A stretch of DNA of 64,000 bases from a virus. Lineage: Duplodnaviria > Caudoviricetes. The notes beneath the pieces are model-generated. The model worked only from the letters and a program-made list of their open reading frames with translations. It had not been told where the DNA came from and ran no database searches. The stretch lies in IMG/VR virus record IMGVR_UViG_3300006045_001036. One strand, written 5' to 3'. The position numbers and the translations under genes are program-made. Of the stretch, positions 498 through 58,835 are shown piece after piece. Positions within the stretch are counted from its first letter, which is position 1; each line of letters opens with the position of its first letter.

Positions 498-1211
498 TCA
501 TCGTTTACCTTTCTTCTTAGGTTTCTTCTCTTGTCGAGTGCCTTGCTTCGTCCACTCGGATTTCGCAAAAAGTTGCTTACCCTGCTCGACAAGCCATTCA
601 ATCATATAACTGTCAATCTTGACGTTGGCAACTCTAAGAGAGTTAATGCGTTCCTCGGCAACAATGTTCCCCGAGAAATCCAAGAGTTGAAAAACAATCC
701 ATGCTTGATTCTGACCGTCCTCGAAGTCAATATTCCATTCGAGTTGCTTGGATACGTGCTTATTTAAGCGGTATTCGACCTCCGCTATTATCGAAGGTTT
801 CAGCGGGTGAACAGCCATGTTGTAAGTGCTGCCGACATTGCCGATTCCGTGACTACTCTGTATGCGTGGTAAAGCGACAACTTTCAGCTTCATTACTTTC
901 TGAATAAGAGCGGAGTACCCTTCTTCGTCGGTCGCTTCAATATATCGCTCCTTATTACGAGCAATTTCTTGAACCATCCACCCTTGGTGAGCCACGGCTT
1001 CGTTGCCGTCGATGAACGTGATATAGCTGTCTTTCGATAATCGCAATACATCCGAAGTGTCTAACCCGCTAAACACTTCGTTTCCGTTGTCATCGAAAGA
1101 ACGCCGTTTATACGTCGGCAGTCCGTTCGGTGAAAACGTATCAAGATAATAGCCTTTCCGTGATTGCAAAACAATGTCACATTGTTTCGAGGACGAGCAT
1201 AGTTTAATCAT
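498..1211 (-). CDS. hypothetical protein with head-type leader (MIKLCSSS); candidate capsid-internal protein
   Basis: AAAGGA RBS favours ATG at 1211; N-terminus matches the leader seen on head proteins; internal RIQSS; Lys-rich C-terminus. Confidence 0.7.
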   Translation of the reverse strand: MIKLCSSSKQCDIVLQSRKGYYLDTFSPNGLPTYKRRSFDDNGNEVFSGLDTSDVLRLSKDSYITFIDGNEAVAHQGWMVQEIARNKERYIEATDEEGYSALIQKVMKLKVVALPRIQSSHGIGNVGSTYNMAVHPLKPSIIAEVEYRLNKHVSKQLEWNIDFEDGQNQAWIVFQLLDFSGNIVAEERINSLRVANVKIDSYMIEWLVEQGKQLFAKSEWTKQGTRQEKKPKKKGKR

Positions 1212-1225
1212 AGAAATTCCTTTCA

Positions 1226-1546
1226 TTACACCGCATGACGGCGGGTGTGTATCCAGTCGGTAGCTTTCCGCTCTTCGTAAAAACCCTTGACTTCCTTGTA
1301 AGCGGTCTTTGTCTTCTTGTCGGAAAAGAACGCTTTACCGAACGCTTCTTTCAAAGCTTTGTAGTCAGATTCGGAGCAGCGTTGTCTTAAACCGTCTACA
1401 TATACGAAGTATTTAGCGTCCCACTTCTTGAAATTGTTGCCCCCAATGTTGTAGGTTTCGGAATGAAATTTCTCAAACTGCGTCACGCTGTCGAGGTTGA
1501 TTTCTCTGGATTCATAACCGTTATTAGTTCTGATATTCATTAACAT
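1226..1546 (-). CDS. hypothetical protein
   Basis: Start moved to ATG 1546 because the longer ORF runs through a terminator hairpin and promoter motif. Confidence 0.7.
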   Translation of the reverse strand: MLMNIRTNNGYESREINLDSVTQFEKFHSETYNIGGNNFKKWDAKYFVYVDGLRQRCSESDYKALKEAFGKAFFSDKKTKTAYKEVKGFYEERKATDWIHTRRHAV

Positions 1547-1600
1547 TTCGCACTCTCTTTCTCGGCGAATCGCCGTACAACTTTCTCGTTCACAAGAAGT

Positions 1601-1607
1601 AATGCTA
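1601..1607 (-). promoter_or_regulatory. candidate phage late promoter motif TAGCATT
   Basis: Recurrent intergenic 7-mer; here just downstream of a terminator. Confidence 0.5.
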
Positions 1608-1617
1608 ACTATGAAAC

Positions 1618-1652: not shown

Positions 1653-1684
1653 AAAAATATAAATAGAGGATGGTGACATAGCTG

Positions 1685-3878: not shown

Positions 3879-3892
3879 AAGTAATTCCTTTC

Positions 3893-4843: not shown

Positions 4844-6241
4844 TCAGATGTTGCGTAATACGTGACTCATGTCGGATTTTGATAATCCGACGGCTGTCAT
4901 CAAGTCTTTAATTTTGAATTTGGGGTCGGCTTTAAGAGATTCAAGACCTACCGACACTGCGAGGGGAAGGTGTCTGATGTACTCGTCAACTTCAAGTTGT
5001 CGGACAAAGATTTCACCGTTCACGTCTTCAACGTCTGGTTCCACTTCGTTGTCGTTTTTGTCGGTCTGTTTATCGCTGTCTGTTCCTTTGTAATACTCTG
5101 TCTCGTTACGCAGAAAGTGTATGACCTGAGACACAATTACCTTGTGAGCGAATGTCGAAAATTGAAAGCCTTTCCTCGGTGCAAAGTTAGCTACTGCTTT
5201 CCACAATCCGAACTCGGCAGCTTGTTTTGTCTCTTCGAGAATTGCCGCATCCTTGATTTCGTGAAATTCCTTGCTCTTACGCAGGTACATATGTGCCAGT
5301 TGCCAAGCTAATTGACGATACTGCTCGAAAAGAGCGAGTTCTTCCTCTCGGGATAATTTTGCAGGCATTTCAACGATTGAGATTAGAGAATTGCTGTCTT
5401 TGGCAACAACAGTTCGGGGAAGATGAAGACGTACAGATATTTCGTCTTGAAGGTCTTCGTTGCTCTCGTTAGCGAGTTCTCGTTCGATTAGGTTGTGAGC
5501 AATTTCAGGAACTGAGCGAAGTCGTTTATCAGTGGCGGTTAAGAAATGGGGGATTCGGATTTCGTCGAATAATTTTTCCAGAGGGCGGTCTCCGTAGTAT
5601 CGAGCATAAAGGCGGGTAATTTCAGAATTAAGTAGCAGATACGCTCTGACTTGCCGCTTTTCTTCTGCGAAACACAGCTTAGTGCAACCTTCAAACGGAC
5701 TATAATGAGCAGTTATATACCCTAATCCCTGTTCATCGAATCTATGTTGTACGTAAATCTCAAATCCCTTATTGACAAACCACGAGGAAATAGGTTTTTT
5801 CGTCTTCAAATTTTGCCAAAAATCCGCACTGGCTTCGTTCCAACATTCGAAACGGTCGGCGTCCATCTTGGAATTAGTGAGAAATAAATCAAGTTTCTCA
5901 ACCAATAACGGTAATCCTTTTTCATCGGTAACGAGTTCCCCCGCCATTTTGCGAATAGGTTTGTTATCTTCCATTTCGTGACTTAACACAAACATTGCGG
6001 TAGGTTCTTCGTCCGCAAAATTCCATGTAAATCCTTTGACACAACTATGTTGGAGAATCGCAACACGTGTGTCTTCATATGCGGAATCGAATAAAGCATT
6101 TAATGAACAGACTAATAAAATTCTGTTGTTCGGGTCGTCGAAGCAGTGGAAAGCTTTACGAGATTTTGCGTTTAGTTTCACCATTGAAGTACAATCGTAC
6201 TTCTCGGAAACTAATTCAATTGCTTTTTGAGTTAATCTCAT
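4844..6241 (-). CDS. sigma-70-family factor (SigF/G/B-like region 2) with a ~290 aa unknown N-terminal extension
   Basis: LSREEE..QAAEFGLWKAVANFAPRKGFQFSTFAHKVI..FLRN region 2 signature; HTH-like C-terminus. Confidence 0.75.
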   Translation of the reverse strand: MRLTQKAIELVSEKYDCTSMVKLNAKSRKAFHCFDDPNNRILLVCSLNALFDSAYEDTRVAILQHSCVKGFTWNFADEEPTAMFVLSHEMEDNKPIRKMAGELVTDEKGLPLLVEKLDLFLTNSKMDADRFECWNEASADFWQNLKTKKPISSWFVNKGFEIYVQHRFDEQGLGYITAHYSPFEGCTKLCFAEEKRQVRAYLLLNSEITRLYARYYGDRPLEKLFDEIRIPHFLTATDKRLRSVPEIAHNLIERELANESNEDLQDEISVRLHLPRTVVAKDSNSLISIVEMPAKLSREEELALFEQYRQLAWQLAHMYLRKSKEFHEIKDAAILEETKQAAEFGLWKAVANFAPRKGFQFSTFAHKVIVSQVIHFLRNETEYYKGTDSDKQTDKNDNEVEPDVEDVNGEIFVRQLEVDEYIRHLPLAVSVGLESLKADPKFKIKDLMTAVGLSKSDMSHVLRNI

Positions 6242-6783: not shown

Positions 6784-7284
6784 TTATTTCGGTTTCCTTG
6801 CTTTTCCTTTACCGAGGCTCTTTGCCGAGCTTTCGATGGGAGCTTCCGAAGGAGCGGCAGTAACCACGTTGTCAGGAATGTTTTCAATATCAGTCTTAGC
6901 GATTTCGGCACCGTCTTCATCGGTGGTGATTACAGAGAGAACCTCGCCGTCTTCAACGATGTCGGTGTTGGTGTCTTCACCCATTGCCTGTGAAACTTGG
7001 TCGGCTACGATTTGAGCAACGTCTTCGGGAGCGAAGAAAGTTTCTTCTACGCCAATTTCTCCTGCATCGTCCGCCGAACTTGTCAATGCACCGCCGACAA
7101 CACCTGCGACTGCAGGGGCAGCTAAACCAGCGAGAGCAGGGAGTACAGAGTCAACCTTGGCTCTTTGACTTCCTGAACGCACAGGACTTCTTTTTGGAGC
7201 TGTTTTGCTGCTTTTTACAGGGGTTCTTTTCCTACCTGCGGGAGCGGTTGCAGGGGCTTTAGTTGAACTAATAATTTTCATCAT
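6784..7284 (-). CDS. putative prohead core or internal head protein
   Basis: AAGGAG RBS; leader MKIISSTKAP; motifs VKSS, LTSSA, IESSA; located in the head module. Confidence 0.7.
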   Translation of the reverse strand: MMKIISSTKAPATAPAGRKRTPVKSSKTAPKRSPVRSGSQRAKVDSVLPALAGLAAPAVAGVVGGALTSSADDAGEIGVEETFFAPEDVAQIVADQVSQAMGEDTNTDIVEDGEVLSVITTDEDGAEIAKTDIENIPDNVVTAAPSEAPIESSAKSLGKGKARKPK

Positions 7285-7296: not shown

Positions 7297-8025
7297 TTAA
7301 TTAATAAATAGTAAGTCTTCGGCAGAGTCTGCGACTTCTGACCTGATTTCGGCGAATTCCTCTTTCGCTTCCTGTATCAGTCGTTCGCCACCTAACTGTA
7401 CAGACCCTGGAAGATTGACTTTGCCTCGTACCTGCCCTACAGCCATTTTGAGGTAAGCCACTGAAAGACGAAGTAAGTACGTAGACCAACGTTCGTCATC
7501 AATTTCCTCGACGCTTTGATAGTCGGGGACATACCGCACTGTTATATGTGTCGGTAATGGAACTGCGTGAGTGATATACAAATAGCGGTCACCACGGTGG
7601 AAACTGAAATTCAAATCGGTTTGTAAGGTATTCCTTATTTGCCGAGATAACAGCCTCCGAGCAACAGGGGAAATATCGGTGACACCGTTCCCCAGCCCGT
7701 AGTAGTTGCTGTTTAACGAGACCGCCAGTGAGAATACATCTGTACCACCTGCACCAATCGCAGTTCCTTCCAAAGGTTGAGCACGTATGATTTCACTAAC
7801 ACTCTTCGCTTTAATATTAACACTCGGATGTGCTAAATCTATCCGTCTGGCGAAACGTACAGTTCGTTCAACTTCCAGAGAGTCCCACCCTTTCATTTCC
7901 CGAAAAGCCAGTTTAATAGCCGTTACTGTCGGTTTGTTCTCGACATCTCGTATTCTTGGTACAAGAAATTCAACCGATTGAACGAGTTCGGGTAGAGTGA
8001 AAAAGCTCATAGAATTTGCTGACAT
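7297..8025 (-). CDS. neck / head-completion protein (T4 gp13-like)
   Basis: C-terminal GQVRGKVNLPGSVQLGGERLIQEAKEE matches the gp13 pattern; downstream of the capsid gene. Confidence 0.75.
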   Translation of the reverse strand: MSANSMSFFTLPELVQSVEFLVPRIRDVENKPTVTAIKLAFREMKGWDSLEVERTVRFARRIDLAHPSVNIKAKSVSEIIRAQPLEGTAIGAGGTDVFSLAVSLNSNYYGLGNGVTDISPVARRLLSRQIRNTLQTDLNFSFHRGDRYLYITHAVPLPTHITVRYVPDYQSVEEIDDERWSTYLLRLSVAYLKMAVGQVRGKVNLPGSVQLGGERLIQEAKEEFAEIRSEVADSAEDLLFIN

Positions 8026-8034: not shown

Positions 8035-8298
8035 CTATTCCCCTCTTTTCACCGATTTGGCAGATGCAAGTATTCGAGATTTACCCTGCGTCTGTACCGA
8101 ACTTAAAATCCTGTTCATCTTAGCAACATTCACTCTATCGGAAGAAGATAAGGCGGCTTTTGCTGTTTCCACTGCTCCAGCATCTTTCTGCAAGTCTTTA
8201 AGAGAGTCTGCTAACTGCGGAAGAAGTTTTAGAAGTTCGGGGAGTAACGGTAGTAATTGAGGAAGTATTTTTGCCAATGCTGCCATAGGGTTCCTCAT
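8035..8298 (-). CDS. small amphipathic protein with head-type motifs
   Basis: LPxLL repeats; RILSSV and RILASA motifs. Confidence 0.65.
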   Translation of the reverse strand: MRNPMAALAKILPQLLPLLPELLKLLPQLADSLKDLQKDAGAVETAKAALSSSDRVNVAKMNRILSSVQTQGKSRILASAKSVKRGE

Positions 8299-9059: not shown

Positions 9060-10598
9060 TTAGTAAGAACCAGCGATAGAACCTTTGACCATAGTCATCG
9101 GGTTCACTGTGTTGATTGCGTATGCACCGACGTAACCTTGTTCAACGTCCATGTTCGCACGTTCGAGTCTTTGAGTTGCGGCAATCGGCAAGAAACAGCC
9201 GACCATCATCGAAGCTTTAAGTTTGTCGTTACCTTTGAAGAGCTGTACAAAGTCGTTTGCACCGAGGTTCGGGTCAACGTACACTTTGTAAGCACCGAGC
9301 GAACCTGCGTAGCAAGCTCCGCTGATGTCTTCGGAAATCGTTTCTTCTTGGAATTTCGCCATGTTCTGGAATACACCGAGAACATTTGTGCCGCAGCAGA
9401 TACGGTTTGTTCCCCATTGACGGGTTACTTGACGTACTGCCAAAGAACCTTTATCGAGAACGGTTTTGAAGTTGTTAAAGTAACTAAACTCTCCACCGCC
9501 GTCAACGCTGTTGAATTTACCCGAAGAATTCCACGTCAAGCCTTTCATAGCTGAAGCGTCTCTCCACGCTTGAAGAACAGCGCGGCTGTTGATTTCTGCC
9601 ATTATTTCGCCCATCATCTGAGTTTTTTCAACGTCAGAAAGTTCAGCACCGTATTCCATCTTAGCAGCGTAGTTAGCGAGGTAAGAGCTGTGTGCTTCAA
9701 TTGCGTAAGCTTCTGCTCTGAGTAAGATTCTGTCGAGCTGTAAGTAGGCTTTAACGATATTCGCACCGTAAGTGCCGTCTTCGTGAGCACCGACATTTTC
9801 GTTGTCAAAACGGTAGTTGGCATAAATAGTCAAACCGTCAGAACCGTCCGTCATCGTGATAACACCACGTTCGTAGTCGATTTGTCCCCATTCAGTTGCA
9901 TTCGGGTTGCCGTTCGGGTAGAGATTACCCGCAGCGTCGTCTTTGACTGCGATGGTAGTTCCGTTTGCCTCGTTACGAACTTGGAGTTCAACGTGTCCCG
10001 GAATAATCGCACCACGACCTTCGATACCGAGATAAACAACGTCTCCGGACTCGTCGGGAGTTCTCGCCAATTCCTTCGTCACGAAACTTGAAGCCCAAGT
10101 CGGGTCAGAACCAGACTGAGAGCCGTAAGGCGTGTGCAAAATTTTCTTAGCAGGGGTAGCACCACGTCCTGTTTCGGTAACAACCTTGAAGAAAGGATGC
10201 AAGCTTTCACGACTGTCCATCTCTTGGAAAGAAGCGATTTGGTCAAGGATAGAGTTAGCGACACCAAGAGGAATCAACTCTTTGAATTTCGGAGCAACAG
10301 CAATATTAGTTGTGTTGGTAGCCGATTGAATCCTTGTACCTGCTGCAACAGGAATACGAAGCAATGCAGGGTTTTCTACGCAAGCGGCATCATGAATATC
10401 CATCATTCTTGCGGAGGTGATTGCTTGAGAGTCTCTCAACGCCTTCTGACCACTGGCTTTCAGTGCTATATTCGCTGAAGACAGTATCTTAGCATGACGT
10501 TTGACCGCAGCTTGGTCGGCGGACTGTATCTTGGTCATACCAGCTTTTTGACCTTTGTGTAAGGGCTTCTGTGAAGTCCCACTGTTAATAATAACCAT
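9060..10598 (-). CDS. major capsid protein (T4 gp23-like)
   Basis: 512 aa after the protease; Q-x-M-x-S-x-x-S..F pattern, GEIMAEINSRAV, AGSLGAYKVYVDP; ~92 aa propeptide. Confidence 0.88.
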   Translation of the reverse strand: MVIINSGTSQKPLHKGQKAGMTKIQSADQAAVKRHAKILSSANIALKASGQKALRDSQAITSARMMDIHDAACVENPALLRIPVAAGTRIQSATNTTNIAVAPKFKELIPLGVANSILDQIASFQEMDSRESLHPFFKVVTETGRGATPAKKILHTPYGSQSGSDPTWASSFVTKELARTPDESGDVVYLGIEGRGAIIPGHVELQVRNEANGTTIAVKDDAAGNLYPNGNPNATEWGQIDYERGVITMTDGSDGLTIYANYRFDNENVGAHEDGTYGANIVKAYLQLDRILLRAEAYAIEAHSSYLANYAAKMEYGAELSDVEKTQMMGEIMAEINSRAVLQAWRDASAMKGLTWNSSGKFNSVDGGGEFSYFNNFKTVLDKGSLAVRQVTRQWGTNRICCGTNVLGVFQNMAKFQEETISEDISGACYAGSLGAYKVYVDPNLGANDFVQLFKGNDKLKASMMVGCFLPIAATQRLERANMDVEQGYVGAYAINTVNPMTMVKGSIAGSY

Positions 10599-10628: not shown

Positions 10629-12167
10629 TTAGCCTTTGAAGTTGGTGTAATACTCTTCATCGGTTTCATCAATTTCTTTCACAGCTTGTGGTTGGATAAC
10701 CATGCTCGGAACGACAGCACTGTTAATTTTCGTAATAGAGGCTTGTCGTCTTTGCTGTGTAGAAGCTGTGTCTACGGCAGAACGAATTTGAGCGGGGGTC
10801 GCTGAACTTTCGATTTTGACGCTCGCTACATCGACACCGTAAGCATCTCCGAGAAGTTGCAAATAAGCTTTTTTGAATTCGTCGCTTGTTTGCGGTTGTG
10901 TCTTCGCAGTCCTCGGGGTTGTCCTTGTAGATGACGAAGACTGAATACGTTGGGATTGTTTGCTTTGACGTTTTATTTCGCCTTGAGCCGTCAACAGGTT
11001 TTGACGTGTCTCATTTAATTCAGTGGTTACGGTCTCAAGACGACTCGACAGGTTTCGATTGTCTCGAGCAGACGCCGCTATTTTTGTTCTCGACTTCTGT
11101 TGTGTCTCTTGTAACTCTTGAATTTGTTTGATTAATTCTTCATTCTGAGCCAGAAGTTCAGCGTTGTACGCAGCCACTTCATCAATCTCGGCTTCAGACT
11201 TACGTCGGAATTTATCAAAAACCCCGCTATCGACATTTGCCTGTCTATTTGCACGTAACGCAGTTCGGAGTTCTGATGTTAACTTTACATTCTGTGAACT
11301 AAGTTGTTCTACTTCGGAATTAAGTGCTGCTATTTGTGCTTCTGCGTTCGCTGTTTGATTAGCGGAAGAAGTAATTCGCCGTTGCAATCTTTCATTCTCT
11401 TGTCGTGAAGACCTGAGTTGAGTTGTCTTCCGAGCCAGTGCAGCACTCACTGCCGTTAATCTATCGTCGTCAATTGTGGAGTTTTCAACAATTGTTTGTG
11501 CCGCAGACTCAATTCTTACCTCTGCTAATCGTGTGTCAATTAAGTCGTTGATTAATTTACTGTTAGGGAGTTTGCGGAGTGCGGTAAGAGCTGCCGAGCT
11601 TTCTATCTTCGGTATTTCAGTTTTTGCACTTGCTAACAGTCTGCGGTAGTTCGGATTTTCCGAACTTGCTATTGCTACGATATCGGGAATAGCGTTAGGG
11701 AACGCAGGAAATTGAACAACGTCAAAACCGTTGCATATGAATGTTTCGGGGTCAACCTCTCCAATTGGTTCGCCTGTAGGAGTATCACCCCACCCACGTT
11801 CAGATACACCGAAGCGGGTTCCGCCTTTACAGTAATTGGCTATTAACCGCCCTGTCGGGCAATCAATTATGTCGAACTGAGCCCAGACTTCGCCGTCATC
11901 TAATACCTTAGCATCGTTCAACCGTCCACAGGAATTGGCGGGGTTCGGCTCATCTTCTTCTGGATGTCCAAACCACATTAAGTGACATTTCCGTTTAAGA
12001 CCGTCAATAAACCGTTCAGACCTAAAAGCATTTAACCAAGCACCTTTAGCGAGATAAACACCATTCACGTTATCGACATCGGAATCACCTGAGGTTCCTT
12101 CAATACGCATAACCACTCCGGGCGGTAAATTATCGGTAATTGTCTTAAATTCCGCTCTCTTGCTCAT
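10629..12167 (-). CDS. prohead protease (T4 gp21-like) fused to a coiled-coil scaffold
   Basis: GHP, FGVSERGWG and GFDVVQFPAF catalytic motifs; long coiled-coil C-terminus. Confidence 0.88.
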   Translation of the reverse strand: MSKRAEFKTITDNLPPGVVMRIEGTSGDSDVDNVNGVYLAKGAWLNAFRSERFIDGLKRKCHLMWFGHPEEDEPNPANSCGRLNDAKVLDDGEVWAQFDIIDCPTGRLIANYCKGGTRFGVSERGWGDTPTGEPIGEVDPETFICNGFDVVQFPAFPNAIPDIVAIASSENPNYRRLLASAKTEIPKIESSAALTALRKLPNSKLINDLIDTRLAEVRIESAAQTIVENSTIDDDRLTAVSAALARKTTQLRSSRQENERLQRRITSSANQTANAEAQIAALNSEVEQLSSQNVKLTSELRTALRANRQANVDSGVFDKFRRKSEAEIDEVAAYNAELLAQNEELIKQIQELQETQQKSRTKIAASARDNRNLSSRLETVTTELNETRQNLLTAQGEIKRQSKQSQRIQSSSSTRTTPRTAKTQPQTSDEFKKAYLQLLGDAYGVDVASVKIESSATPAQIRSAVDTASTQQRRQASITKINSAVVPSMVIQPQAVKEIDETDEEYYTNFKG

Positions 12168-12504: not shown

Positions 12505-14097
12505 CTACATCTCTCCGCCTTCACCGCTCTTTACCTCGACTGTCTTCATAGACGCCATCTGAGCAGTGAAGATAGGCAATATGCGTTCGGTTATTTCTTT
12601 AACAGCTTTAACTCTTTCGTCATGCTCTCCGATACCCAGTTTGTCGCACAAATCAAGTAACGCTTTGGCGTTTTCGATTGCCTGTTGTACCTTGTCTATG
12701 AGGAACGTATCAAGCAACGACAGTGGAGCATTCATGCAGAGTTCGTACTTGCCGATATAATCCTTGTACCCATTTCGTTCCAACATCAAATCAATACCAC
12801 GAGTAATTCCTGTCAGGTATGCCACTTGACCTCGTTGTACACGGCGGTTGAATCTGGACGACATTTGTGTCAGCGTTGTTCCCGAAGCACCAAGACCGCC
12901 CTCCCCACTGTAGTTCATCTGTTGTTTGGGGATAGCAAGAGCAGCAAGTTTCTTGTTAAGGTTGTACTCTACGTCAGCTATATCACGAACATTGACATCG
13001 CCTCCGAGCGTTTTGACATCAATCACACCTTTACCATCACGAGTAAGCGAGTATATTGTGTTTTCAAGAGACTGTGGATTTGCAGTACTCTCAGCAGTAC
13101 CGAGCGTTGTAGACAGAGTCATGTCTTGCTCCATCTTGTTTTTCAACGCCATGAGAGCTTTTTGAGCAGCGTCTTTACGCATGGTTTTGACTTCGAGGGA
13201 CACAAGACGTATAACAAGACTTTTCGTCAGTTTGTTAAGGAGCAGCGAGTCTTGCATCAAGTTGTCTATAACAGTCGGTGTGTATGCTGCCTCAAGAGGC
13301 GGCACATCGACCTCGACACCGTATTCGATTTCGTTGCCGTCTTGGTCTTTGAGATACACCGATAATCCCGAGCTAAGTGATTTCAATTGAACATGAAGGT
13401 AACTTGCTGGCGGGTATTTGTTAGCCACACCTTTGTTTGTCGAGTGTAAAAACAGCATAGAACCGAGCTGAGAGCTTTCGACTTGAGAGCGTTTATCAGG
13501 TCCCAGTGAATAGAAACAAGCGGTTTCTCCTGTTTCTTTGAAGGTCAGCTCTACCACACTGTTTTGAAGTTTGATGTCTCGTGTATTCCATGAGAAGTAT
13601 TTTGTTCGCTCTCCACGGTTATCAAGTCGAACCAACCCGCCGACGCTCATGCGGTCACGAAACACCTCCGTCGATGGAAAACAAAATCCTCCGTGAGTAA
13701 ATAAGACTCTCATATGCCCCCAGCCATATTCTTGAAGGCGTAATTCATAATCAACGATATCTTGAATATGCTTCTGAATAATTTCGTTATCAGATGAAGC
13801 CCATACAATCTGACCTTTCTCGTTAGGAGATGTAGACTCGTCCGCATACATATCAAGAGCCGTGGAAACGTCAGGGTCGGACGCCATTTGCTCAATAGCG
13901 AGATAACGAGATGTGAAATTGCTCATCAGAGCTGACAGAGGCTGAAACCCTGCTAAACTGGCGATACTGCCGTTAAGTAAGTCTTCAGGGACACTCGAAC
14001 TCTCAGGCTTCCCGTATTTTTGTTCCCTCATATTACGGCGATTTTCAGCCGACCGTCTGTACCAATCACCTATATTACTTAAGATAGGAATTTTCAT
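12505..14097 (-). CDS. portal protein (T4 gp20-like)
   Basis: MASDPDVSTALDMYADE, DIADVEYNLNKKLAALAIPK, RFNRRVQRGQ. Confidence 0.88.
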   Translation of the reverse strand: MKIPILSNIGDWYRRSAENRRNMREQKYGKPESSSVPEDLLNGSIASLAGFQPLSALMSNFTSRYLAIEQMASDPDVSTALDMYADESTSPNEKGQIVWASSDNEIIQKHIQDIVDYELRLQEYGWGHMRVLFTHGGFCFPSTEVFRDRMSVGGLVRLDNRGERTKYFSWNTRDIKLQNSVVELTFKETGETACFYSLGPDKRSQVESSQLGSMLFLHSTNKGVANKYPPASYLHVQLKSLSSGLSVYLKDQDGNEIEYGVEVDVPPLEAAYTPTVIDNLMQDSLLLNKLTKSLVIRLVSLEVKTMRKDAAQKALMALKNKMEQDMTLSTTLGTAESTANPQSLENTIYSLTRDGKGVIDVKTLGGDVNVRDIADVEYNLNKKLAALAIPKQQMNYSGEGGLGASGTTLTQMSSRFNRRVQRGQVAYLTGITRGIDLMLERNGYKDYIGKYELCMNAPLSLLDTFLIDKVQQAIENAKALLDLCDKLGIGEHDERVKAVKEITERILPIFTAQMASMKTVEVKSGEGGEM

Positions 14098-15686
14098 AAC
14101 AATACTCCGTTATCTGCCAAAAACTTGTCTTCTGATACCATAGGGATTTTGAACGCTTTCGCTTTTCTCATCTCAGAGCCTATTTGCCCCGACATCAAAC
14201 CGCCGACAACAAAAACTTTCGTTTGTTCTGTCACGTTTTCGTGAATTACTCCGCCGTGGTCGGTGATTAAAGCTTTTACCTTTTCAGGTTTGCCGCAACG
14301 GAAGTTTCCTGAAAGATACACCGACACACCAACAAGCGTATGAGGTTTTTCTTCCTTGTTTTTTACTACGTCGGTAACTTCGATAAGCTCTGATAAAGTT
14401 TTCCACTCGGCAATATTCTCGGGTGTAATCGCCCAGTTGACAAAAGCGTTTTGTGCCGCAGACGAAAGACCCGCAGAATTGTGGAAAGCTCTTGGCTTAT
14501 TAATGAGATAATCGTTGAATATTTTTACACTTCCCCTGCTTGCGTCTACAATTGTGTTTACATCACTGTTGGATAATCCGGGGATTTCCAAACTCCATAA
14601 GAGCTTGAGAAGAGACACCTCAAGTTTCTCGGGGAAATTACGAACATATTCTTTTAACCAAGCAGGGGTGAAATTGTTTATACTCGTTTCTTGACCGAGC
14701 TTGATAGCATCGGATAACGATTTCACTTTGTTTTTCGCAGTCATGCCGAGAATAGTTTCCGAAGTAAACGCTATTCCTAACTGGGTAAGAAAAACGTCAA
14801 GACGTTGGTATAGCTGCGATGTGCAGTTGTAATTACCGCATATCGTTGCTCCGTGACCGACTGTCAGTTTGTCACCACACAGAGGGCATTCTCTTTTCAG
14901 AGGCTCGGCGGGAGAGCCAACAGTACGAACAACATTGTCAAGTGTATCTACGATAAACATTTGGTTGACACCGAGGTTATTACGCAGAATATACGAATAG
15001 CTCTTAGTCAGCACAACATCTTTAGTCGAAGTAATCAACTTGCCTATGAGCTGTCCGTTCGCTTTATAATCCAGTTCGATTTTCTGTATACGAAGCAAAC
15101 GGTAAGGGATTCGAGAAGTTAAGAATTGCTCTTTTCCTGTATTGGATTGCATTACGGTTGTAATCCGACCAGGGTATTGAGATAATTCTTTCGATATACC
15201 GAACTCGGCTATAGTAGCGTTGTAATACTCAAACACACCTTGTTGTTCGGTGGTATCGTTACAAGTAACGAATGACAGGGTTTTGAACCCCATTAAGTTA
15301 AGCAGTTCAATGTGGTCGGTTTGTCGGTTTAATATTGTTGGACACATCAAGAACTTGTGCGGGAAGAATACCCGAGACACGTCTTCTTGCAAGCTCATTG
15401 TCTGAGCTTGCTCGTTCATGTCGCCGAATCCGATATGCGACTTCGGTGTGAGTACCCCCAGCACTTTTGAAGTCCCGCCAGTCAACCCGATTGCATGAGG
15501 GATATTTTCAATCGTATCAAGATTGATAATCTTTTCGCCGTATTTTTCGTGGTTCTGTTCTCCTACAGTTACTCCGATAAGCAACCCTTCTTCAGAATAC
15601 TCGGCAACAACGTCTATGCCGAAAGGGTGATAGTAAGCGGTCATTCCTGTACGGAACACCATTTTCTTTACAGGTGTTTTAGTCAT
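14094..15686 (-). CDS. NAD-dependent DNA ligase-like protein, catalytically degenerate (OB, Zn-finger, HhH, BRCT retained)
   Basis: CPLCGDKL..ICGNYNCTSQ Zn finger, LLWSLEIPGL HhH, VYLSGNF..LITDHGG..MVSEDKF BRCT; KxDG replaced by HPFG. Confidence 0.8.
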   Translation of the reverse strand: MTKTPVKKMVFRTGMTAYYHPFGIDVVAEYSEEGLLIGVTVGEQNHEKYGEKIINLDTIENIPHAIGLTGGTSKVLGVLTPKSHIGFGDMNEQAQTMSLQEDVSRVFFPHKFLMCPTILNRQTDHIELLNLMGFKTLSFVTCNDTTEQQGVFEYYNATIAEFGISKELSQYPGRITTVMQSNTGKEQFLTSRIPYRLLRIQKIELDYKANGQLIGKLITSTKDVVLTKSYSYILRNNLGVNQMFIVDTLDNVVRTVGSPAEPLKRECPLCGDKLTVGHGATICGNYNCTSQLYQRLDVFLTQLGIAFTSETILGMTAKNKVKSLSDAIKLGQETSINNFTPAWLKEYVRNFPEKLEVSLLKLLWSLEIPGLSNSDVNTIVDASRGSVKIFNDYLINKPRAFHNSAGLSSAAQNAFVNWAITPENIAEWKTLSELIEVTDVVKNKEEKPHTLVGVSVYLSGNFRCGKPEKVKALITDHGGVIHENVTEQTKVFVVGGLMSGQIGSEMRKAKAFKIPMVSEDKFLADNGVLL

Positions 15687-17885: not shown

Positions 17886-18333
17886 TCTCGTCTACCTCGA
17901 TTCCTTCAACAACCTGCGTTGCTTCACCGAGTATTGCAGAAGCAGCGTCGATTATCTTGCCTCGCTGTCCTTCTTCCATAGTTTCAAACTCATTTGTCGA
18001 ACCCTCGATTTCAATCGGCTCGTTGGGGTTGAATCCCATACATTCGAAAGTAGTTTTCAGCGTTTTATCCGTTACAGTCACCGCCTTGTTTAACTCACCT
18101 TGAGCAGCAAGGCAGACTTGTAAAGCTTGCGGAGCATCCTCGACAGTGTCGAGGTTTGCCATAACGCTCTGTGTACTTTCTACGAGTTTTGTCTCCACCA
18201 GTTCTCGGGCTTGGTCGAGCCGTTCCACACGCTGTATTTCGTTAAGCACACGCTGTTTTTGAAAATTCTGAATGGTTGTCAGAAAATCAGCGTTGCTCAT
18301 GTGGTTTGCATTTTTCACAAATGTATTACTCAT
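17866..18333 (-). CDS. putative terminase small subunit
   Basis: Helical 155 aa ORF overlapping the terL start (positional inference). Confidence 0.5.
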   Translation of the reverse strand: MSNTFVKNANHMSNADFLTTIQNFQKQRVLNEIQRVERLDQARELVETKLVESTQSVMANLDTVEDAPQALQVCLAAQGELNKAVTVTDKTLKTTFECMGFNPNEPIEIEGSTNEFETMEEGQRGKIIDAASAILGEATQVVEGIEVDENGEVIE

Positions 18334-18655
18334 CGTCTTCTCCTTCTGGCTCGGGAGCGGGGTTCATCTCTTCGAGCAGACTCTCCGCCGACACAGCGAT
18401 TGAGAATAAATCGGCGACAAGTTTCGCAGCCTGTTCCTCAAAACTCGAAAACTGCTTACCCGCAATCGCCAAACTTAGCTTTTCACCAAGTTCGTCACAA
18501 CTTCCCGAAATTAACCCTAATGCAGCAGTTGCTGACATTGTGTTATCGCCGTCCGCCGATTGGATAGCGACTTGAGAATCGACAGGAGCGGTAACTTCTG
18601 CCAAAACCTTGGTTTTTCTTCTCGGAGCTTTTGTTCCACTGTTGATAATTTTCAT
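18326..18655 (-). CDS. putative internal head protein
   Basis: Leader MKIINSGTKAP nearly identical to the capsid (MVIINSGT) and 6784 (MKIISSTKAP) leaders; AIQSA. Confidence 0.65.
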   Translation of the reverse strand: MKIINSGTKAPRRKTKVLAEVTAPVDSQVAIQSADGDNTMSATAALGLISGSCDELGEKLSLAIAGKQFSSFEEQAAKLVADLFSIAVSAESLLEEMNPAPEPEGEDDE

Positions 18656-19832: not shown

Positions 19833-20786
19833 TTAGTCCTTGTTGTTTTTGAGTTCTTGTTTTGCCGTAGCGGAAATGATGTCTTTAATCGCAACATGGA
19901 AATTATCGACATTTTCGTTTTTCGTAGTAATCGTTGTTTCTTCTGAAGAATTGCCGACAACACAGCGGAAATCTGCTGAGAACCCGCCTTTGTCATCCAT
20001 GGCAGTTATAGACGGTATTGTGAGAACTAAATCGTAATCTACCGACGTGCTGTTGATTTGACGAACATCCGCCTCTATCCTAATCGTGTTCCCGATTGCT
20101 TGTTTGGTTACATTCTTCAGCGTTATCCCCCGAGGGCGGAATTTGTCGATATCAAGCTTTGTCTCAAGCCATTCGATTGTGTCTTTCTTCGATTTTGATT
20201 TATTTTCAGCAGAAGAATTGATTTGAGCAGGATTCGGGTCAGCGGGATTTGTCGGCTCAGGTGGCGGAGTTTCATCGGAGTCAACCTTGTTCGTACTGTC
20301 TTTCATTCCGCTTGGCTTCATGGACGGTGCAGCGTGGTTATTGGTATCACCAACACGCTGAACATATACGAGAGCGTTTTCTCCTTCGTCAATCCGCTCG
20401 AAAGCCAGCATAGTGAAATTCCATGCCTGTATCCCTCTCCACATAGGATTAATAACCTTGCGTAAATCGGTGTCTGCCGAGAACACTGCGTAAAGTTCGC
20501 CGTCTTGCTCGTATACTCTTTCGAGTCCACGCAAATCATTATCGTTTTTAAGTTGATGGTATATCGAGTTAACCCAGTCGCTGTCAAACACAACAGGACT
20601 TTTCGACGTGCGGACGTTCACCGACGCATTCCCTGACATTGCCGAACTTTTGACCTCGACACCAAGACGCTGCAGAGCCGTCGCACGTTTAGACGAAGCA
20701 AGCAGCTTTGTAGTCTTATCCTCGCTCTTAATCGAAGAATAAATCTTAGATTTTGACATGAAATCAGCAGTAGATACTATTTTCAT
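19833..20786 (-). CDS. putative internal head protein, two domains
   Basis: GGAGG RBS; MKIVSTA leader; KIYSS, LLASS, VKSSA, QINSSA; Pro-rich linker. Confidence 0.7.
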   Translation of the reverse strand: MKIVSTADFMSKSKIYSSIKSEDKTTKLLASSKRATALQRLGVEVKSSAMSGNASVNVRTSKSPVVFDSDWVNSIYHQLKNDNDLRGLERVYEQDGELYAVFSADTDLRKVINPMWRGIQAWNFTMLAFERIDEGENALVYVQRVGDTNNHAAPSMKPSGMKDSTNKVDSDETPPPEPTNPADPNPAQINSSAENKSKSKKDTIEWLETKLDIDKFRPRGITLKNVTKQAIGNTIRIEADVRQINSTSVDYDLVLTIPSITAMDDKGGFSADFRCVVGNSSEETTITTKNENVDNFHVAIKDIISATAKQELKNNKD

Positions 20787-22665: not shown

Positions 22666-23056
22666 ATGATTAAGATTAAGAGTTCAAGCGGTGTCGGGGG
22701 GGGGGCGAATTTGTTCGTCTGCCAACAACGAGTTCAACGACATAAAGGCATTTCTTGAAGATATTCGCAGTCAACAAGGTTCGGAGGACAGATACGTAGC
22801 AGAGACCAAAGGAAATCATACTGTGAATATTCCTGCGAATGCACTCGCACAAGTTGTAGATAAGTTCTTCGGAGCGATGTTAGTTGTTGCTGAGGAAACA
22901 GGGGCAACCTACGATGCTTATGTCAACGGTTTCAACTATTGGTTGAAACTCTCCGAGAAACGTATCAACGACACACACGGTGAAAGTTTGGGAAACGCTT
23001 CAACAGGATTTATCAAATCGGCATTGAAACAGCAAGTGGCTTATGAAATGAGATAG
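22666..23056 (+). pseudogene. head-leader protein frameshifted at a G10 tract (phase-OFF allele or homopolymer error)
   Basis: GAAAGGAG RBS and ATG 22666; with G9 the frame reads MIKIKSSSGVGGGRICSSANNEF... to TAG 23056; with G10 it stops at TGA 22758. Confidence 0.75.
22696..22705 (+). repeat. poly-G tract (G10)
   Basis: Ten consecutive G; the only such run I noticed in the window. Confidence 0.95.
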
Positions 23057-31379: not shown

Positions 31380-31946
31380 TTACAGTTTCCCCAACCATTT
31401 ATCTATGCCATCATAGGCATCATCGTAGTTATTATAAGTAGCTTTTGCACAACCGCTTACTACGATATTATGCAGTTTCCACCTTTGCTTTGGATTTCCT
31501 GTCAATTTTGCTGACTGTGCTTGATGCTTCTTGTTATCTTGTTTCTCCAAAGGAGCTTTCTCTGCGTTTGTTTTTCTTGCATGGCGAAAATGATTAGATA
31601 ATCGAAATATGATTAGACATTTACTCGTGCTGTTGGGCGGGAAAAAGTACCAATAGTGAGACATCCCGCTCTGCTCGCTAATGACATAATCAAGTGGCTC
31701 AATGTTATGAGTATAAAACAACCCCATAACACTTTGTACAAAATCTTCGTATTCGCCTAATACGAAGTTTTCAATGACAGCTCCCGATGCTATCTTAGTC
31801 GTAGGATAGGACGCCGCAATCGGGACAGTTTTGTCTAACCCCTCCAACTCCACATCTACCACGATAACATTTTCCAACGATATGCCGTGTTGTGTAGCCA
31901 GTTGCTGTATTGATTTTGCACTGCTTAATAATCTAATCATTATCAA
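31380..31946 (-). CDS. inserted gene with head-type leader (MIRLLSSAK); candidate capsid-internal protein
   Basis: GAGGTG RBS, own TAGCATT motif and terminator; IFRLSNH motif. Confidence 0.7.
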   Translation of the reverse strand: MIMIRLLSSAKSIQQLATQHGISLENVIVVDVELEGLDKTVPIAASYPTTKIASGAVIENFVLGEYEDFVQSVMGLFYTHNIEPLDYVISEQSGMSHYWYFFPPNSTSKCLIIFRLSNHFRHARKTNAEKAPLEKQDNKKHQAQSAKLTGNPKQRWKLHNIVVSGCAKATYNNYDDAYDGIDKWLGKL

Positions 31947-55625: not shown

Positions 55626-55641
55626 ATCTTTCTCCTTTCTA

Positions 55642-58011
55642 TCATCTATAGCTTCCGTAGTTTCCTACTTTGGCAATTCTGTTAACCTTACCATCTCCGA
55701 ATGGAAGATTTGTAGAAGCAGCCGTCCAAGCGGGTCCGTTGTGAAGATACTCGGTGACACACTTTCCGCCGTCGTGTCCGTATATGCTGTTAGCGTCCGC
55801 ACCCTTCCACTCACCGCAGATACACTTAATTGTTTTCGCAGTTCCTCCAGTCGGTGTAAAGGTGACATTAAGATAATCACCGATGGTAACTGGTAGAATA
55901 TTTCCAATATTAGGTCGGGTCGCTATCACGTAACGGTCATCGACCATAATCATTTTGGCATTACCTGAAGGGATGTCTGCTGCTCTAAATCGTCCGTTAG
56001 CGATAGCGTGTTCAACAAACTTCCTCTGTTCTGAAGCCATACCGTTACAGAAGTAACTCATATTAGTCCATTTAATACCCATACCCTCAGGAATATCAAC
56101 AAACATTCCTGGTTCGCCAGTTCCTTCGCCGTCTTCCCATTCGGGGTCATCATTTCCGGGAGGTGTTCCCGTACTCACAATAACTTGATTCTCTGACACT
56201 GCCGCAATTGCACACTCAAACACCATTGTTCCCGCTACAGCCGAGGAACTTGTTAATACTCCGCCAGTGGTGACTCCGCCTTGTAGAACAACAAGAGGCG
56301 GTTTCGGGTCAACTTCATCTAAACCACTCCACACCGTATCTTGTCTTACCATGCCGTTTCCCGCAATCTCTTCTTGCAATCTATCTGCCAAATCATTTTC
56401 AGGGGAAATGAAAGCTACTATAGGACGTCGCTCTTCTGGTTCAATGCTTCGAACAACTGTGTTTCGAGCAGAGTTTCCAGTGATGTATCCCTGTCTTATA
56501 AATCCGTATTTACGCAGATACCGCATAAACATTTCGTAAGTTTCGGGTTTACTGTTTCTGACAAAGATACCGAAAGGCAACGGTTTGAATTCATACTGCC
56601 GAGCAATTCGGTGAGCTTGTCGTTCATGGCTCTCGTTCGTCATTTCTACTGTTGCTCCAAGAGCTACGTCGTTATCCAGTGTAATTGTTCTGACTTGGTG
56701 TTGATTTCCATCAGTGTCGTTGGTTCGAAGTAATACGCCTTTAATTAAATCAGGACGATATAAGAGAAGAACTTTCAAATCTTCAATTGTTCGAGAACTC
56801 ATGTTAGGCAACAGTAAGTACAGTTCGGGAGGTAGTTCAACGTGTTCTTCGTATTCTCCCGAGTAATCACCTCCGCTTGGTGGTGTCACATAATCTTGCC
56901 AGCCATCTAACCACGGAGACTCATGTGATTGTATCCCTGTTAACCATGTGAAAGGGTCTTCCGCCCAACCGCTCATTCCGGGGACAGAGCGACCTACCGA
57001 ATAATTTGATAATCGGTGAGTATTGCCGTATTCAAAGTGTAAATGTACTCCTGTGCTTCTACCAGTTGTCCCTTCGACACCGACAACATCCCCAGCATTA
57101 AGTTCATCACCGAGACCTACAGCAATTGATTCCATGTGTGCAAACCTAATCCATTCGTTGCCGGATATCTTGAGAACTACGGTATTACCCCAACCGCCGT
57201 TATACCCTCCACCGCCGTAGGCTTCAATAACTGTACCGCTAATAGGAGAATGCAAGGTATTATCTCCGCTATGTGTCGAGTCACACCCTAAGTGTTCACC
57301 TCCGTATTTTTGCCAGTCCGCACTCCCCGAGACCACAGCGTAGCCGTAATTGATGTAAGTCGGGTTACTGTATATCCCACACATATTAGTGGGTCCGTAA
57401 GGATAAGAATACGAGTTGGTTAATAATCCTCCTGACTGTAACGGATGTTCCGGAGTAGCACCACTTCCGCCCTCGGGGATTTCTCCGGGATTCGGAGCAT
57501 TCTGCGAAGTCAGCCATTGGCGAGGGTCAAAAGTCACTCCGTTGTTTTGAGCGGCAAAGTGAAGGTGTTGCCCATCACTTCTCCCTGTGTCGCCCTCTGT
57601 ACCAATAACTGTTCCTGCGGTCACAGGCTCACCCTGCGACACCAAAATTTCGTGTAAGTGAGCGTAGGTCAAAGTTAAATGAGAGTGATTACCGCTCCCT
57701 TGAATAGTGACGTAATTACCGAGAGCAGGACTACTTGTAACATGACGAAAACTGTCGGTGAATTTCGAAGCAGTTTGCACGTAACCATCAATCGCTGATA
57801 TTAACATACGAGCGTTACGAGTGCTGTTAATCAATTCTGTTGTTACTGTCGAATTCCGAGAGATAAACCCCCCTCTGGTTTGTGTATCAATTGCCAAGTG
57901 TCCTGCGTGGTATCCTTGGGTTTCTTCAGGACCCCGCCCAGTCGCAGGGTTAACAACTGATTCTCTATACAACATTTTTCCGTAAGTATCATGAATAGGT
58001 GTTTGAGCCAT
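55642..58011 (-). CDS. multi-domain cell-wall hydrolase: two M23 peptidase domains plus further domains
   Basis: HLAID..YAHL..GRSDGQHLHF and HLGCD..FAHM..GRSTGVHLHFE. Confidence 0.85.
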   Translation of the reverse strand: MAQTPIHDTYGKMLYRESVVNPATGRGPEETQGYHAGHLAIDTQTRGGFISRNSTVTTELINSTRNARMLISAIDGYVQTASKFTDSFRHVTSSPALGNYVTIQGSGNHSHLTLTYAHLHEILVSQGEPVTAGTVIGTEGDTGRSDGQHLHFAAQNNGVTFDPRQWLTSQNAPNPGEIPEGGSGATPEHPLQSGGLLTNSYSYPYGPTNMCGIYSNPTYINYGYAVVSGSADWQKYGGEHLGCDSTHSGDNTLHSPISGTVIEAYGGGGYNGGWGNTVVLKISGNEWIRFAHMESIAVGLGDELNAGDVVGVEGTTGRSTGVHLHFEYGNTHRLSNYSVGRSVPGMSGWAEDPFTWLTGIQSHESPWLDGWQDYVTPPSGGDYSGEYEEHVELPPELYLLLPNMSSRTIEDLKVLLLYRPDLIKGVLLRTNDTDGNQHQVRTITLDNDVALGATVEMTNESHERQAHRIARQYEFKPLPFGIFVRNSKPETYEMFMRYLRKYGFIRQGYITGNSARNTVVRSIEPEERRPIVAFISPENDLADRLQEEIAGNGMVRQDTVWSGLDEVDPKPPLVVLQGGVTTGGVLTSSSAVAGTMVFECAIAAVSENQVIVSTGTPPGNDDPEWEDGEGTGEPGMFVDIPEGMGIKWTNMSYFCNGMASEQRKFVEHAIANGRFRAADIPSGNAKMIMVDDRYVIATRPNIGNILPVTIGDYLNVTFTPTGGTAKTIKCICGEWKGADANSIYGHDGGKCVTEYLHNGPAWTAASTNLPFGDGKVNRIAKVGNYGSYR

Positions 58012-58019
58012 AACCTCTC

Positions 58020-58505
58020 CTAATCAAAATCAAATCCATAACGCAGGAAGTTTCGTTCGCCAGTGGTAAGGATTTCGCCATCGTCACGTTTCTCCCGCAG
58101 TTGCTGTAATTTTGCTTTACGCTCACGCTCCTGTTGTTCTTGAAGAGCTTCCTGTCTACGTAATTCAGCAACTCGACCTGCTGACTCTCGACGTTGTTTT
58201 TCAAACTTGATAACCGCTTCTGCTTCCATAGTTTCGTTACACCACATCTTGATAGTGAAGACAACCGAGTCAATCATTCTCGGGTCGTTAACAAGCCCGA
58301 CTATCCGCCGATATACTTCTTCCTTCGGAATATTCACCTTAACAGGTTGCGGTGGGTTAAGTAATTCCTTGTGCTTCTCCACAATCGGCGGTTCAACCTT
58401 TAAGGATTGATGCGGAGACCGATATTGTTTGATAGTTATTGTCGCCCATATCGCTATAGCGATGATAACGATAGCGATTATTACACCGATAACGAATTGA
58501 GACAT
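58020..58505 (-). CDS. membrane-anchored protein with coiled coil
   Basis: N-terminal hydrophobic helix FVIGVIIAIVIIAIAIWA. Confidence 0.7.
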   Translation of the reverse strand: MSQFVIGVIIAIVIIAIAIWATITIKQYRSPHQSLKVEPPIVEKHKELLNPPQPVKVNIPKEEVYRRIVGLVNDPRMIDSVVFTIKMWCNETMEAEAVIKFEKQRRESAGRVAELRRQEALQEQQERERKAKLQQLREKRDDGEILTTGERNFLRYGFDFD

Positions 58506-58514
58506 AAAATCCTC

Positions 58515-58835
58515 CTACGTCTGTTTTAATCGTTGGTATTGAATTCGTGGGTTGTTCCTCACTTCTTTCCAAAAGTGCTTACCTGCCGACGGTTTTGTAA
58601 AGAAAGCACGGTACACCTTATCAGGCACGTCATAATAAACATACGTTGCACTGGGTACACCGCCTTTGTGGAATCTGACAAGCATGGTTCGAGATGAAGC
58701 ATCATAAGCCACAGCGTAGATATTCGACGAATCAACTTTTCGGAAAGTCTTAGACAGCTCCCGAGTACTGACCGCCGAATTAATCTGCACCGCCGTTATT
58801 AAGTGACCTCGATAACACGACAGTAATCTTATCAT
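58515..58835 (-). CDS. KTSC domain protein with head-type leader
   Basis: VDSSNIYAVAYD..LVRF..YVYYDVP..SAGKHF; N-terminus MIRLLSC..QINSA. Confidence 0.85.
   Translation of the reverse strand: MIRLLSCYRGHLITAVQINSAVSTRELSKTFRKVDSSNIYAVAYDASSRTMLVRFHKGGVPSATYVYYDVPDKVYRAFFTKPSAGKHFWKEVRNNPRIQYQRLKQT

Follow-up and report, generated by a model that had tools for sequence, protein, structure and literature searches.

Do all T4-type phages mature their heads with a protease that cuts after glutamate? All characterised enzymes of this type (T4, phiKZ, 201phi2-1, SPN3US) do so (PMC5694885, PMC9026906, PMC10052503), and the question is raised by the head genes in a 64,000-nucleotide stretch of DNA from a tailed phage (IMG/VR record IMGVR_UViG_3300006045_001036; Caudoviricetes), hereafter called the window. 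The window encodes a protease-scaffold fusion (512 aa, 10629-12167, minus strand) and a gp23-family major capsid protein (512 aa, 9060-10598, minus strand; Pfam PF07068, E=1.2e-9). An earlier note on this DNA had proposed that the protease cuts after Ser and that a shared N-terminal leader marks further proteins for packaging in the head. We think that the head protease of this phage indeed cuts after Ser and not after Glu, with a probability of about 0.72; sites in the substrates and the leaders match this specificity, and the products of dispersed leader-bearing genes would then be packaged. New here would be a gp21-type maturation system with a changed residue directly before the cut bond (position P1) and a matching re-coding of substrates and leaders.

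The enzyme is T4 gp21-like by profile and by predicted fold. Its protease domain (residues 1-165 of the fusion; 11673..12167, minus strand) contains the putative catalytic residues His68 and Ser122 and is followed by a coiled-coil tail; the fusion belongs to the head maturation protease family phrog_207. A profile of the window domain and six homologues matched T4 gp21 (5JBL) at E=6.4e-11, and this profile was required, as a phmmer search of the PDB with the single protease-domain sequence returned only noise. For an AlphaFold model of the domain (predicted local distance difference test, pLDDT, 78), Foldseek ranked 5JBL chains first to third (E=1.5e-8, template modelling score, TM, 0.64-0.72). 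Herpesvirus proteases (pseudorabies virus, human cytomegalovirus) came next at E values of at least 7e-3 and TM of about 0.4-0.46, and as regards membership in the S21 assemblin family, the structural matches were weak and stood behind gp21. The elements H68-P and G-V-S122-x-R-G are invariant in 7 sequences, again in 95, and are aligned to the positions of the active site in 5JBL. In the protein collection, a profile search recovered 787 fused homologues, and PF03420 is carried by all of the 120 fusions listed except those of the window's own clade.

The predicted cleavage motif is [ILV]-x-S-[SAG], and its occurrence was compared with composition-preserving shuffles of each protein. Every motif that had been listed in the protease-scaffold and capsid sequences was found again. 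In the fusion these are IASS166, LASA178, IESSA188, IESAA219, LRSS251, ITSSA265, IQSS408, IRSA461 and INSA481, to which VDSG312 and IESSA452 can be added; the resulting 11 copies (2.0 expected, p<=0.001) all lie after residue 165, with none in the protease domain. The capsid protein contains INSG4, IQSA24, ILSS/LSSA38-39, ITSA60 and IQSA90, the last of these at the boundary RIQS92↓A93TNTTNIA (↓ marks a cut), which amounts to 6 copies where 2.0 are expected, all in residues 1-93 and none in residues 94-512. Further excesses were found in five proteins that are described below: g6784 (5 against 1.0, p=0.004), g19833 (6 against 1.3, p=0.002), a KTSC-domain protein (3 against 0.39), g31380 (4 against 0.7) and g8035 (3 against 0.7). 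Per 100 aa, the motif occurs 3.0 times in the putative substrate set, which was selected partly by the motif itself, and 0.34 times in the rest, so that a per-residue count does reveal the enrichment in putative head substrates that the earlier note had anticipated. For the two members whose place in the set is determined by homology alone, the values are 3.2 per 100 (scaffold part) and 6.5 per 100 (capsid propeptide). In addition, Ser, Ala or Gly follows [ILV]xS at 65% of the sites in the substrate set and at 23% of those elsewhere (p=6e-9). The shuffles retain composition and ignore heptad periodicity, and this leaves room for another explanation, according to which the excess of [ILV]-x-S-[SA] is a by-product of Ser/Ala-rich coiled-coil or disordered sequence and the protease still cuts after Glu or some other residue. 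Evidence that bears on this explanation comes from the aligned cut sites, from a scan over all possible P1 residues and from the enzyme itself.

Comparison was possible with two close relatives, the only ones found in protein collections. Both are Joint Genome Institute (JGI) metagenome contigs, here called L001 (capsid 78% identical to that of the window, protease-scaffold 60% overall) and L011 (protease domain 93% identical); cultured phages gave no DNA-level match to the head genes by megablast, and a scan of viral contigs with the capsid gave no match either. The capsid gene is divided by the predicted last cut, S92↓A93, into a propeptide of residues 1-92 (10323..10598, minus strand; leader MVIINS↓GT, sites 24, 38, 60 and 90) and the mature gp23-family protein (9060..10322, minus strand). 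A profile of 48 capsid homologues matched T4 gp23 over its full length at E=2.4e-50 (6uzc, full-length gp23), and the T4 cut L-T-E65↓A falls in the same column as I-Q-S92↓A of the window. An alignment with gp23 relatives, which had been suggested as a check, thus places S92 in the Glu cleavage column. Among the 48 homologues this column contains E in 40, S in 4, Q in 2 and A and G in 1 each, with L/I/M/F/V in the P3 column; the apparent non-Glu states of P0063, P0005 and P0021 on the capsid tree look, by their aligned residues, like alignment offsets or insertions. In the L001 capsid, the sequence before I-x-S-A is diverged with a six-residue gap, and directly after this site it is 100% identical. 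The window propeptide has no [ILV]xE near the mature boundary.

The second site that can be aligned with T4 is the predicted self-cleavage junction between protease and scaffold, I166-A-S168↓S169 (11661..11672, minus strand), which corresponds to I-T-E↓S of T4 gp21. At P1 of this junction, Glu is present in 88 of 90 Glu-type fusions, which read [VLI]-x-E-[SG], and Ser or Ala in all five aligned proteins of the S-type, as we call the phages with Ser or Ala at such sites. Both T4-alignable sites, gp23 Glu65 and the C-terminal I-T-E of gp21, are therefore Ser in the window. The coiled-coil scaffold that follows (10629..11660, minus strand) contains the ten further [ILV]-x-S-[SAG] sites, and 8 of the 11 fusion sites are retained in L001.

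The P1 residue can also be read from the scaffold without being assumed. For this, every one of the 20 residues was tried as Z in [ILVM]-x-Z, and the counts in the scaffold part were compared with shuffles. In 104 of 120 homologous gp21-scaffold fusions, the strongest over-representation was that of Glu, which means that the scan recovers the T4 rule unaided and is thereby validated. For the window, L011 and L001 it returned Ser (z from 3.0 to 5.2). Two more distant phages have a capsid site other than Glu, and Ser is again favoured in their scaffolds: in L002, with the capsid site I-T-A↓A, Ser (z=3.3) is followed by Ala (z=2.0), and in L006, which has I-R-S-G just before the capsid boundary, the value for Ser is z=2.9. 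In the Glu-type controls L008, L009 and L010, Glu was the favoured residue (z from 2.7 to 5.2), and Ser was not in excess. The scaffold enrichment hence flips from [ILVM]xE to [ILVM]xS exactly in phages with a Ser or Ala capsid site. In the window scaffold, 8 [ILVM]xE triplets remain, and together with the ignored heptad periodicity they speak for a compositional by-product. Their enrichment is z=0.9, however, compared with 3.9 for [ILVM]xS in the same scaffold and with the values of the Glu-type scaffolds, and this explanation is further opposed by the Ser residues at both T4-alignable sites, by the capsid propeptide and by the loss of enzyme residues that are invariant in the Glu-type. We regard it as very improbable.

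The enzyme residues in question are R34, R37, E65, R72, S123 and R160: none of them varies among 90 Glu-type domains, and each is replaced in every one of the five aligned S-type domains. T33 and Y39, which (almost) never vary in the 90 Glu-type domains, are replaced in all five as well, and S123 adjoins the nucleophile. S-type proteases have thus lost four arginines that are invariant in the Glu-type, two of which are clearly common to T4 gp21. Since the far more distant T4 gp21 retains R34, R37, Y39, E65 and S123, the S-type residue states are the derived ones. The loss of arginines would fit a pocket that no longer binds a carboxylate, and these positions are putative specificity residues. 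The S-type members are only 28-39% identical in this domain and still keep the overall pattern. Judged by aligned sites, P1 scan and enzyme residues, the Ser specificity that had been read from the window is well supported by comparison.

Turning to the leaders, the N-termini that had been quoted earlier are present in the window, three of them depending on the choice of start codon. Capsid, g18326 and g6784 share M-[KV]-I-I-[NS]-S-[GS]-T, g19833 starts with MKIVST, and a second group, M-I-[KR]-[LI]-x-S-S, comprises g498, g22666, g31380 and the KTSC protein. After removal of the first 10 residues, no similarity was found among the leader proteins. Of 68 proteins, 8 show the pattern M-x-x-[ILV]-x-S at residues 1-6 (3.0 expected). 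Ser is found at position 6 of 9 proteins, and in 8 of them position 4 is I/L/V (Fisher p=5e-4). Generic N-terminal [ILV]xS in the window is barely above what internal frequency predicts (14 against 11.1). It is the asymmetry between Ser and Glu, together with the fixed position, that constitutes the leader signal. Orthologues in L011 and L001 keep the leaders (MKIINS, MKIISS/MRIISS, MKIIST, MVIINSGT), and the next 20-25 residues diverge.

As the leader genes all have strong ribosome-binding sites and as MK-I-I starts are frequent in low-GC phages, the shared N-termini could in principle reflect selection on translation initiation, by which late genes with high expression would favour early codons rich in A and U (AAA AUU AUU, for example). 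However, the leader codons vary synonymously (ATT/ATC, GGG/GGA, ACT/ACA) and the amino acids are kept, which indicates selection on the protein and not on the RNA. Moreover, the Ser at position 6 becomes Glu in Glu-type phages of similar composition, and the leader motif recurs inside the same proteins, so that an origin in translation initiation is to be considered extremely unlikely.

Other phages possess leaders of their own. When the first 10 residues are considered, S-type loci show [ILV]xS and [ILV]xE at a ratio of 26:11, which is reversed to 5:15 in Glu-type loci (p=0.0019); inside proteins, both are equally frequent. A leader M-x-Y-x-[RK]-[IV]-x-S-[SA] is found on at least four proteins of L006, and the Glu-type L008 has ML[KR]I.[IY]E on three proteins. 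The nearest cultured relative of the protease domain, Streptococcus phage vB_SagM-GXN1 (PQ819873.1), is Glu-type. In its complete genome, five otherwise unrelated small proteins start with MRL[VI][KR]L[NTL]E; four of them are encoded close to the head genes and the fifth 24 kb away (gene starts 98803, 122094, 132585, 132841 and 134401; L013-L016), and they are unannotated in the record; this set looks like a T4-style capsid-targeting family. Its MRLIRLLE and MIRLLS of the window differ essentially at P1 only. More generally, [ILV]xE is present in residues 2-12 of 56 of 102 gp23-like capsids (13 expected), four times the internal rate, which suggests that many of these capsids undergo a very short initial cut or carry a very short tag right at the N-terminus. 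The shared leader that had been claimed for the window is thus supported by its fixed position, by its conservation in orthologues and by the leaders of other phages.

In L008, one of the three leader-bearing genes (L008:2224-2871) encodes an S-adenosylmethionine (S-AdoMet) lyase domain (PF23780) and starts with MLRINIE like two neighbouring genes. This hints that an anti-restriction enzyme of L008 may be packaged in the head.

Beyond scaffold and capsid, four proteins are likely head-core or internal proteins, because they are encoded in or beside the head module, contain several internal sites and have conserved orthologues. The acidic 109-aa protein g18326 (18326..18655, minus strand) combines the leader MKIINS↓GT with a second site, IQS33↓ADGDN. 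Its L011 orthologue keeps MKIINS and VAIQSADGDN, and the approximately 25 residues in between diverge and gain VRSG and VKSA. The protein g6784 (165/166 aa; 6784..7284, minus strand), which adjoins the gene of a gp13-like neck protein (7297-8025, by family search), starts with the leader MKIISS↓T; its N-terminal part is basic and contains VKSS and VRSG, its core is acidic, and IESS↓A is located in the C-terminal part. Its orthologues start with MRIISS (L001) and MKIISST (L011) and retain the sites. In g19833 (317 aa; 19833..20786, minus strand), MKIVS↓TA is followed by IYSS, LASS and VKSS within the first 50 residues, and the L011 orthologue, starting with MKIISTADF, keeps the sites; searches of protein families and of the ESM Atlas gave no match, and we predict a propeptide-bearing head protein. 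The small head-module protein g8035 (8035..8298, minus strand) carries C-terminal LSSS, ILSS and LASA and has orthologues in L001 and L011.

The remaining leader-bearing genes are more dispersed. The KTSC-domain protein (58515..58835, minus strand; PF13619 at residues 35-95) has a 34-residue N-terminal extension with MIRLLS↓C and QINS20↓A and is a candidate leader-bearing substrate. Its gene is 40 kb away from the head module, and the protein is 46% identical to a KTSC protein of the S-type phage L006, encoded next to the portal, in whose extension I-I-S-T stands at roughly the position of QINSA (placed by eye). The 186-aa protein g31380 (31380..31940, minus strand) starts with MIRLLS↓SA, a leader equal to the IRLLE of GXN1 except at P1; its Atlas model weakly resembles gp25-like baseplate wedge proteins (TM 0.32/0.41). 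In g498 (237 aa; 498..1211, minus strand), also a candidate substrate, MIKLCS↓SS is located at an internal Met, and IQSS follows at residue 117. The g22666 frame (22666..23056, plus strand) starts with MIKIKS↓SS and runs into a G10 tract (22696-22705). A frame of 30 codons is followed by a downstream frame of 121 codons that continues RICSS↓ANNEF; with ten G residues the ATG frame stops at 22758, and a one-base change of the tract would join both frames. The tract could be due to phase variation or to an assembly error. No orthologues of g498, g31380 or g22666 were recovered among the relatives. The portal protein is a weak leader candidate, as its start MKIPILS↓N is kept in L011 and not in L001. 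If the leader acts as proposed, the dispersed proteins g498, g22666, g31380 and KTSC would be present in the virion and might be ejected into the host.

A number of observations count against the reading developed so far. The window protease alone stays below every Pfam threshold, and Ser cleavage is a prediction from sequence comparison in a phage that is, like its close relatives, uncultured. T4 gp21 has Trp at column 160, so that R160 is not common to T4; this also weakened the idea that K-A-R at positions 158-160, replaced by A-I-P, forms the Glu-binding site, as the invariance of R160 is restricted to the fusions. The six S-type enzymes have long branches in the protease tree and are all placed on the same side of a single well-supported branch, so that the co-variation may trace to a single switch and not to independent events. 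The capsid tree places the non-Glu phages in two positions with weak deep support, which suggests two lineages, but as the protease tree groups all S-type enzymes, independent S-type origins are not claimed. It is possible that the change from Glu to Ser was one historical switch; what counts as independent is that, within each genome, a number of sites apart from one another have all changed in the same way. Concerning the leaders, L004, whose assignment to the S-type is based solely on the capsid site, has no excess of S-type leaders (1 against 7). In the window, three of eight leader matches hinge on the start codon: g6784 reads MMKIIS or MKIIS, the g498 leader is at internal Met6, which has the better ribosome-binding site and is chosen by one public gene caller while the others take the upstream Met, and the g31380 start is the ATG at 31940, also picked by all three public gene callers. 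With longest-ORF (open reading frame) starts only, 5 matches remain. In an ungapped BLOSUM test of 10-mers, the best leader pair scored 25, at about the 95th percentile of the null, which is marginal and makes the leader case rest on the comparison with other phages. Finally, g31380 and g31999 are encoded in the tail module together with baseplate genes, and both may be tail proteins that match by chance.

Of these leader-related points, the marginal 10-mer test and the location of g31380 and g31999 favour a more restricted interpretation, in which the cut sites are real, the N-terminal motif is a trimming site or a coincidence, and the distant carriers (g498, g22666, g31380, KTSC and g31999) are non-virion or tail proteins. 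It is further in line with this interpretation that [ILV]xS[SAG] occurs within the 12 N-terminal residues just 6 times (2.9 expected), that g31380 is weakly gp25-like, that g498 and g31380 gave no orthologues, and that the leader-like start of the portal is absent in L001. It does not account well for the fixed position of P1 at residue 6 in eight proteins, nor for GXN1, L006 and L008, each of which has its own fixed-length leader on several unrelated proteins, ending in its own P1 residue. The agreement of IRLLS in the window with IRLLE in GXN1 and the L006 KTSC homologue beside the portal, with its I-x-S site at a similar position by eye, likewise argue for a function of the leader, and equivalent tags of T4 have been shown to target proteins to the head (PMC9026906). 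We therefore consider the restricted interpretation unlikely.

According to the mechanism that we propose instead, the gp21-like serine protease (His68, Ser122) would recognise [I/L/V]-x-Ser followed by a small residue and cut after the Ser. It would free itself at I-A-S168↓S, chop the scaffold at about ten sites and remove the 92-residue capsid propeptide by several cuts, the final one at S92↓A93, and the small head-core proteins g6784, g18326, g19833 and g8035 would be trimmed. With the six-residue tag M-x-x-[ILV]-x-S, the phage would have a Ser counterpart of the capsid-targeting sequences and short propeptides known from T4; the tag would bring a protein into the prohead core and then be cut off. 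In this mechanism we infer that cleavage takes place and at which bond, that the leader acts in targeting, and that distant leader proteins are present in the virion.

Most similar to the proposed system is T4 gp21 (MEROPS S77, PF03420), with its substrates gp22, gp23, gp24, gp67, gp68, IPI-III and Alt. It shares with the window enzyme the fold, the catalytic His and Ser, the gene order of portal, small protein, protease, scaffold, capsid and neck, the preference for a hydrophobic P3, any P2 and a small P1', the many scaffold cuts, the long capsid propeptide with its last site at gp23 Glu65, and the C-terminal self-cleavage site at I-T-E↓S. The window departs from T4 in its predicted P1 residue, which is Ser (Ala for L002 and its branch). 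Its protease and scaffold form a single fusion protein, an arrangement shared with GXN1 and many metagenomic relatives; R34, R37, E65 and S123 are replaced, and there is no I-x-S site near the N-terminus of the enzyme, where T4 has L-I-E9, a segment that lies in the active site of 5JBL. In T4, propeptides comprise 7-65 residues and the capsid-targeting sequence 10 (PMC5694885, PMC9026906, PMC10052503); the latter is shared by unrelated internal proteins, and Alt loses 7 residues (PMC9026906). The capsid-targeting sequence of IPII and IPIII, MKTYQEFIAE, and the short propeptides of Alt and gp24 resemble the window leaders in being short tags on unrelated proteins (7-10 residues, 6 in the window) that end in the protease cut site, with a hydrophobic residue two positions before the cut. 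The window consensus M-[KVI]-[IKR]-[IL]-x-S differs in its P1 residue and in that the major capsid protein itself is tagged, and its targeting role is putative.

Drifted specificities are known from giant phages, in which S/A/G replaces I/L at P3 and Glu stays at P1 (PMC5694885, PMC10052503). The gp21 homologues concerned, phiKZ gp175, that of 201phi2-1 and SPN3US gp245, process many head and ejection proteins with redundant propeptide sites, whereas the window keeps P3 and would change P1. GXN1 has a protease-scaffold fusion, a gp23-like capsid and five unrelated small proteins with an eight-residue leader like the window, but its scaffold ([ILVM]xE z=4.7), capsid (L-L-E↓S) and leader (MRL[VI][KR]L.E) are all Glu-type. 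The herpesvirus assemblin (MEROPS S21) has the consensus (V/L/I)-x-A↓S. This is nearly the same motif, with an aliphatic P3 and small P1 and P1' residues, and assemblin also has a related fold and scaffold substrates; as the window protein is in the gp21 family by sequence and by best structural match, the resemblance in specificity would be convergent. Our literature search found no non-Glu T4-type protease and nothing on GXN1 virions.

The genomic context is that of a T4-type phage. The window belongs to a genome of about 220 kb (contig of 219,530 bases) and covers its head and tail modules, with genes on the minus strand almost throughout; family searches assigned capsid, portal, neck and protease to the T4 type, and tail tube, sheath and baseplate genes further along the window. 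The large terminase (710 aa, 15753-17885, by family search) is followed by a 530-aa BRCT/ligase-like protein (14094-15686, minus strand), the gp20-family portal (12505..14097, minus strand; PF07230, E=1.6e-30), the fusion and the capsid, and the order portal, protease/scaffold fusion, capsid is common to the window, L001, L008, L009, L011 and GXN1. The protein between terminase and portal combines a BRCT domain with a resemblance to the C-terminal half of NAD-dependent DNA ligase and is found in the same position in L001 and L011. Intein-splicing domains (PF14890) are present in the large terminase genes of L006 (L006:29-2983) and L008 (L008:3273-5684) and not in that of the window. Downstream of the head module, a 465-aa protein (4844-6241, minus strand), whose L001 and L011 orthologues match sigma-70 region 2 (PF04542; in L001 only faintly), may be a phage sigma factor. 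Adjoining the tail genes, a 789-aa protein with two M23 peptidase domains (55642-58011, minus strand) is probably a virion-associated cell-wall hydrolase. It was considered as a protease substrate and rejected: its 7 motif copies exceed the 2.6 expected, yet they are scattered and mostly have L/V at P3, and the excess is probably unrelated to the head protease.

If Ser cleavage is true, the Ser/Ala-cutting clade would be the first exception to a Glu rule that has been treated as a constant of the family, and an essential protease and its sites, about 30 of which are predicted in the window, would have been re-coded together. A phage enzyme would then use a motif close to the (V/L/I)-x-A↓S of its herpesvirus relatives. 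Residues 34, 37, 65, 72, 123 and 160 are candidate specificity residues for mutagenesis. The over-representation of [ILVM]-x-Z in scaffolds provides a readout of protease specificity that needs nothing but sequence, and the scan can, together with the N-terminal tag, nominate head-internal proteins in uncultured phages. The change may also concern host defence, as the 'tripwire' loops of CD-NTases are cleaved by T4 gp21 at I/L-x-E (PMC12991175). One could speculate that the switch from Glu to Ser was adaptive and evades host sensors or inhibitors keyed to Glu-specific prohead proteases, with the leader-tagged set representing packaged and ejected anti-defence cargo, an idea that we rate as quite improbable. 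The cargo would in that case include the KTSC protein, the product of the G10-interrupted gene and, in the Glu-type L008, the S-AdoMet lyase. As host immunity can sense the prohead protease via its cut motif, a change of this motif may bear on the conflict between phage and host.

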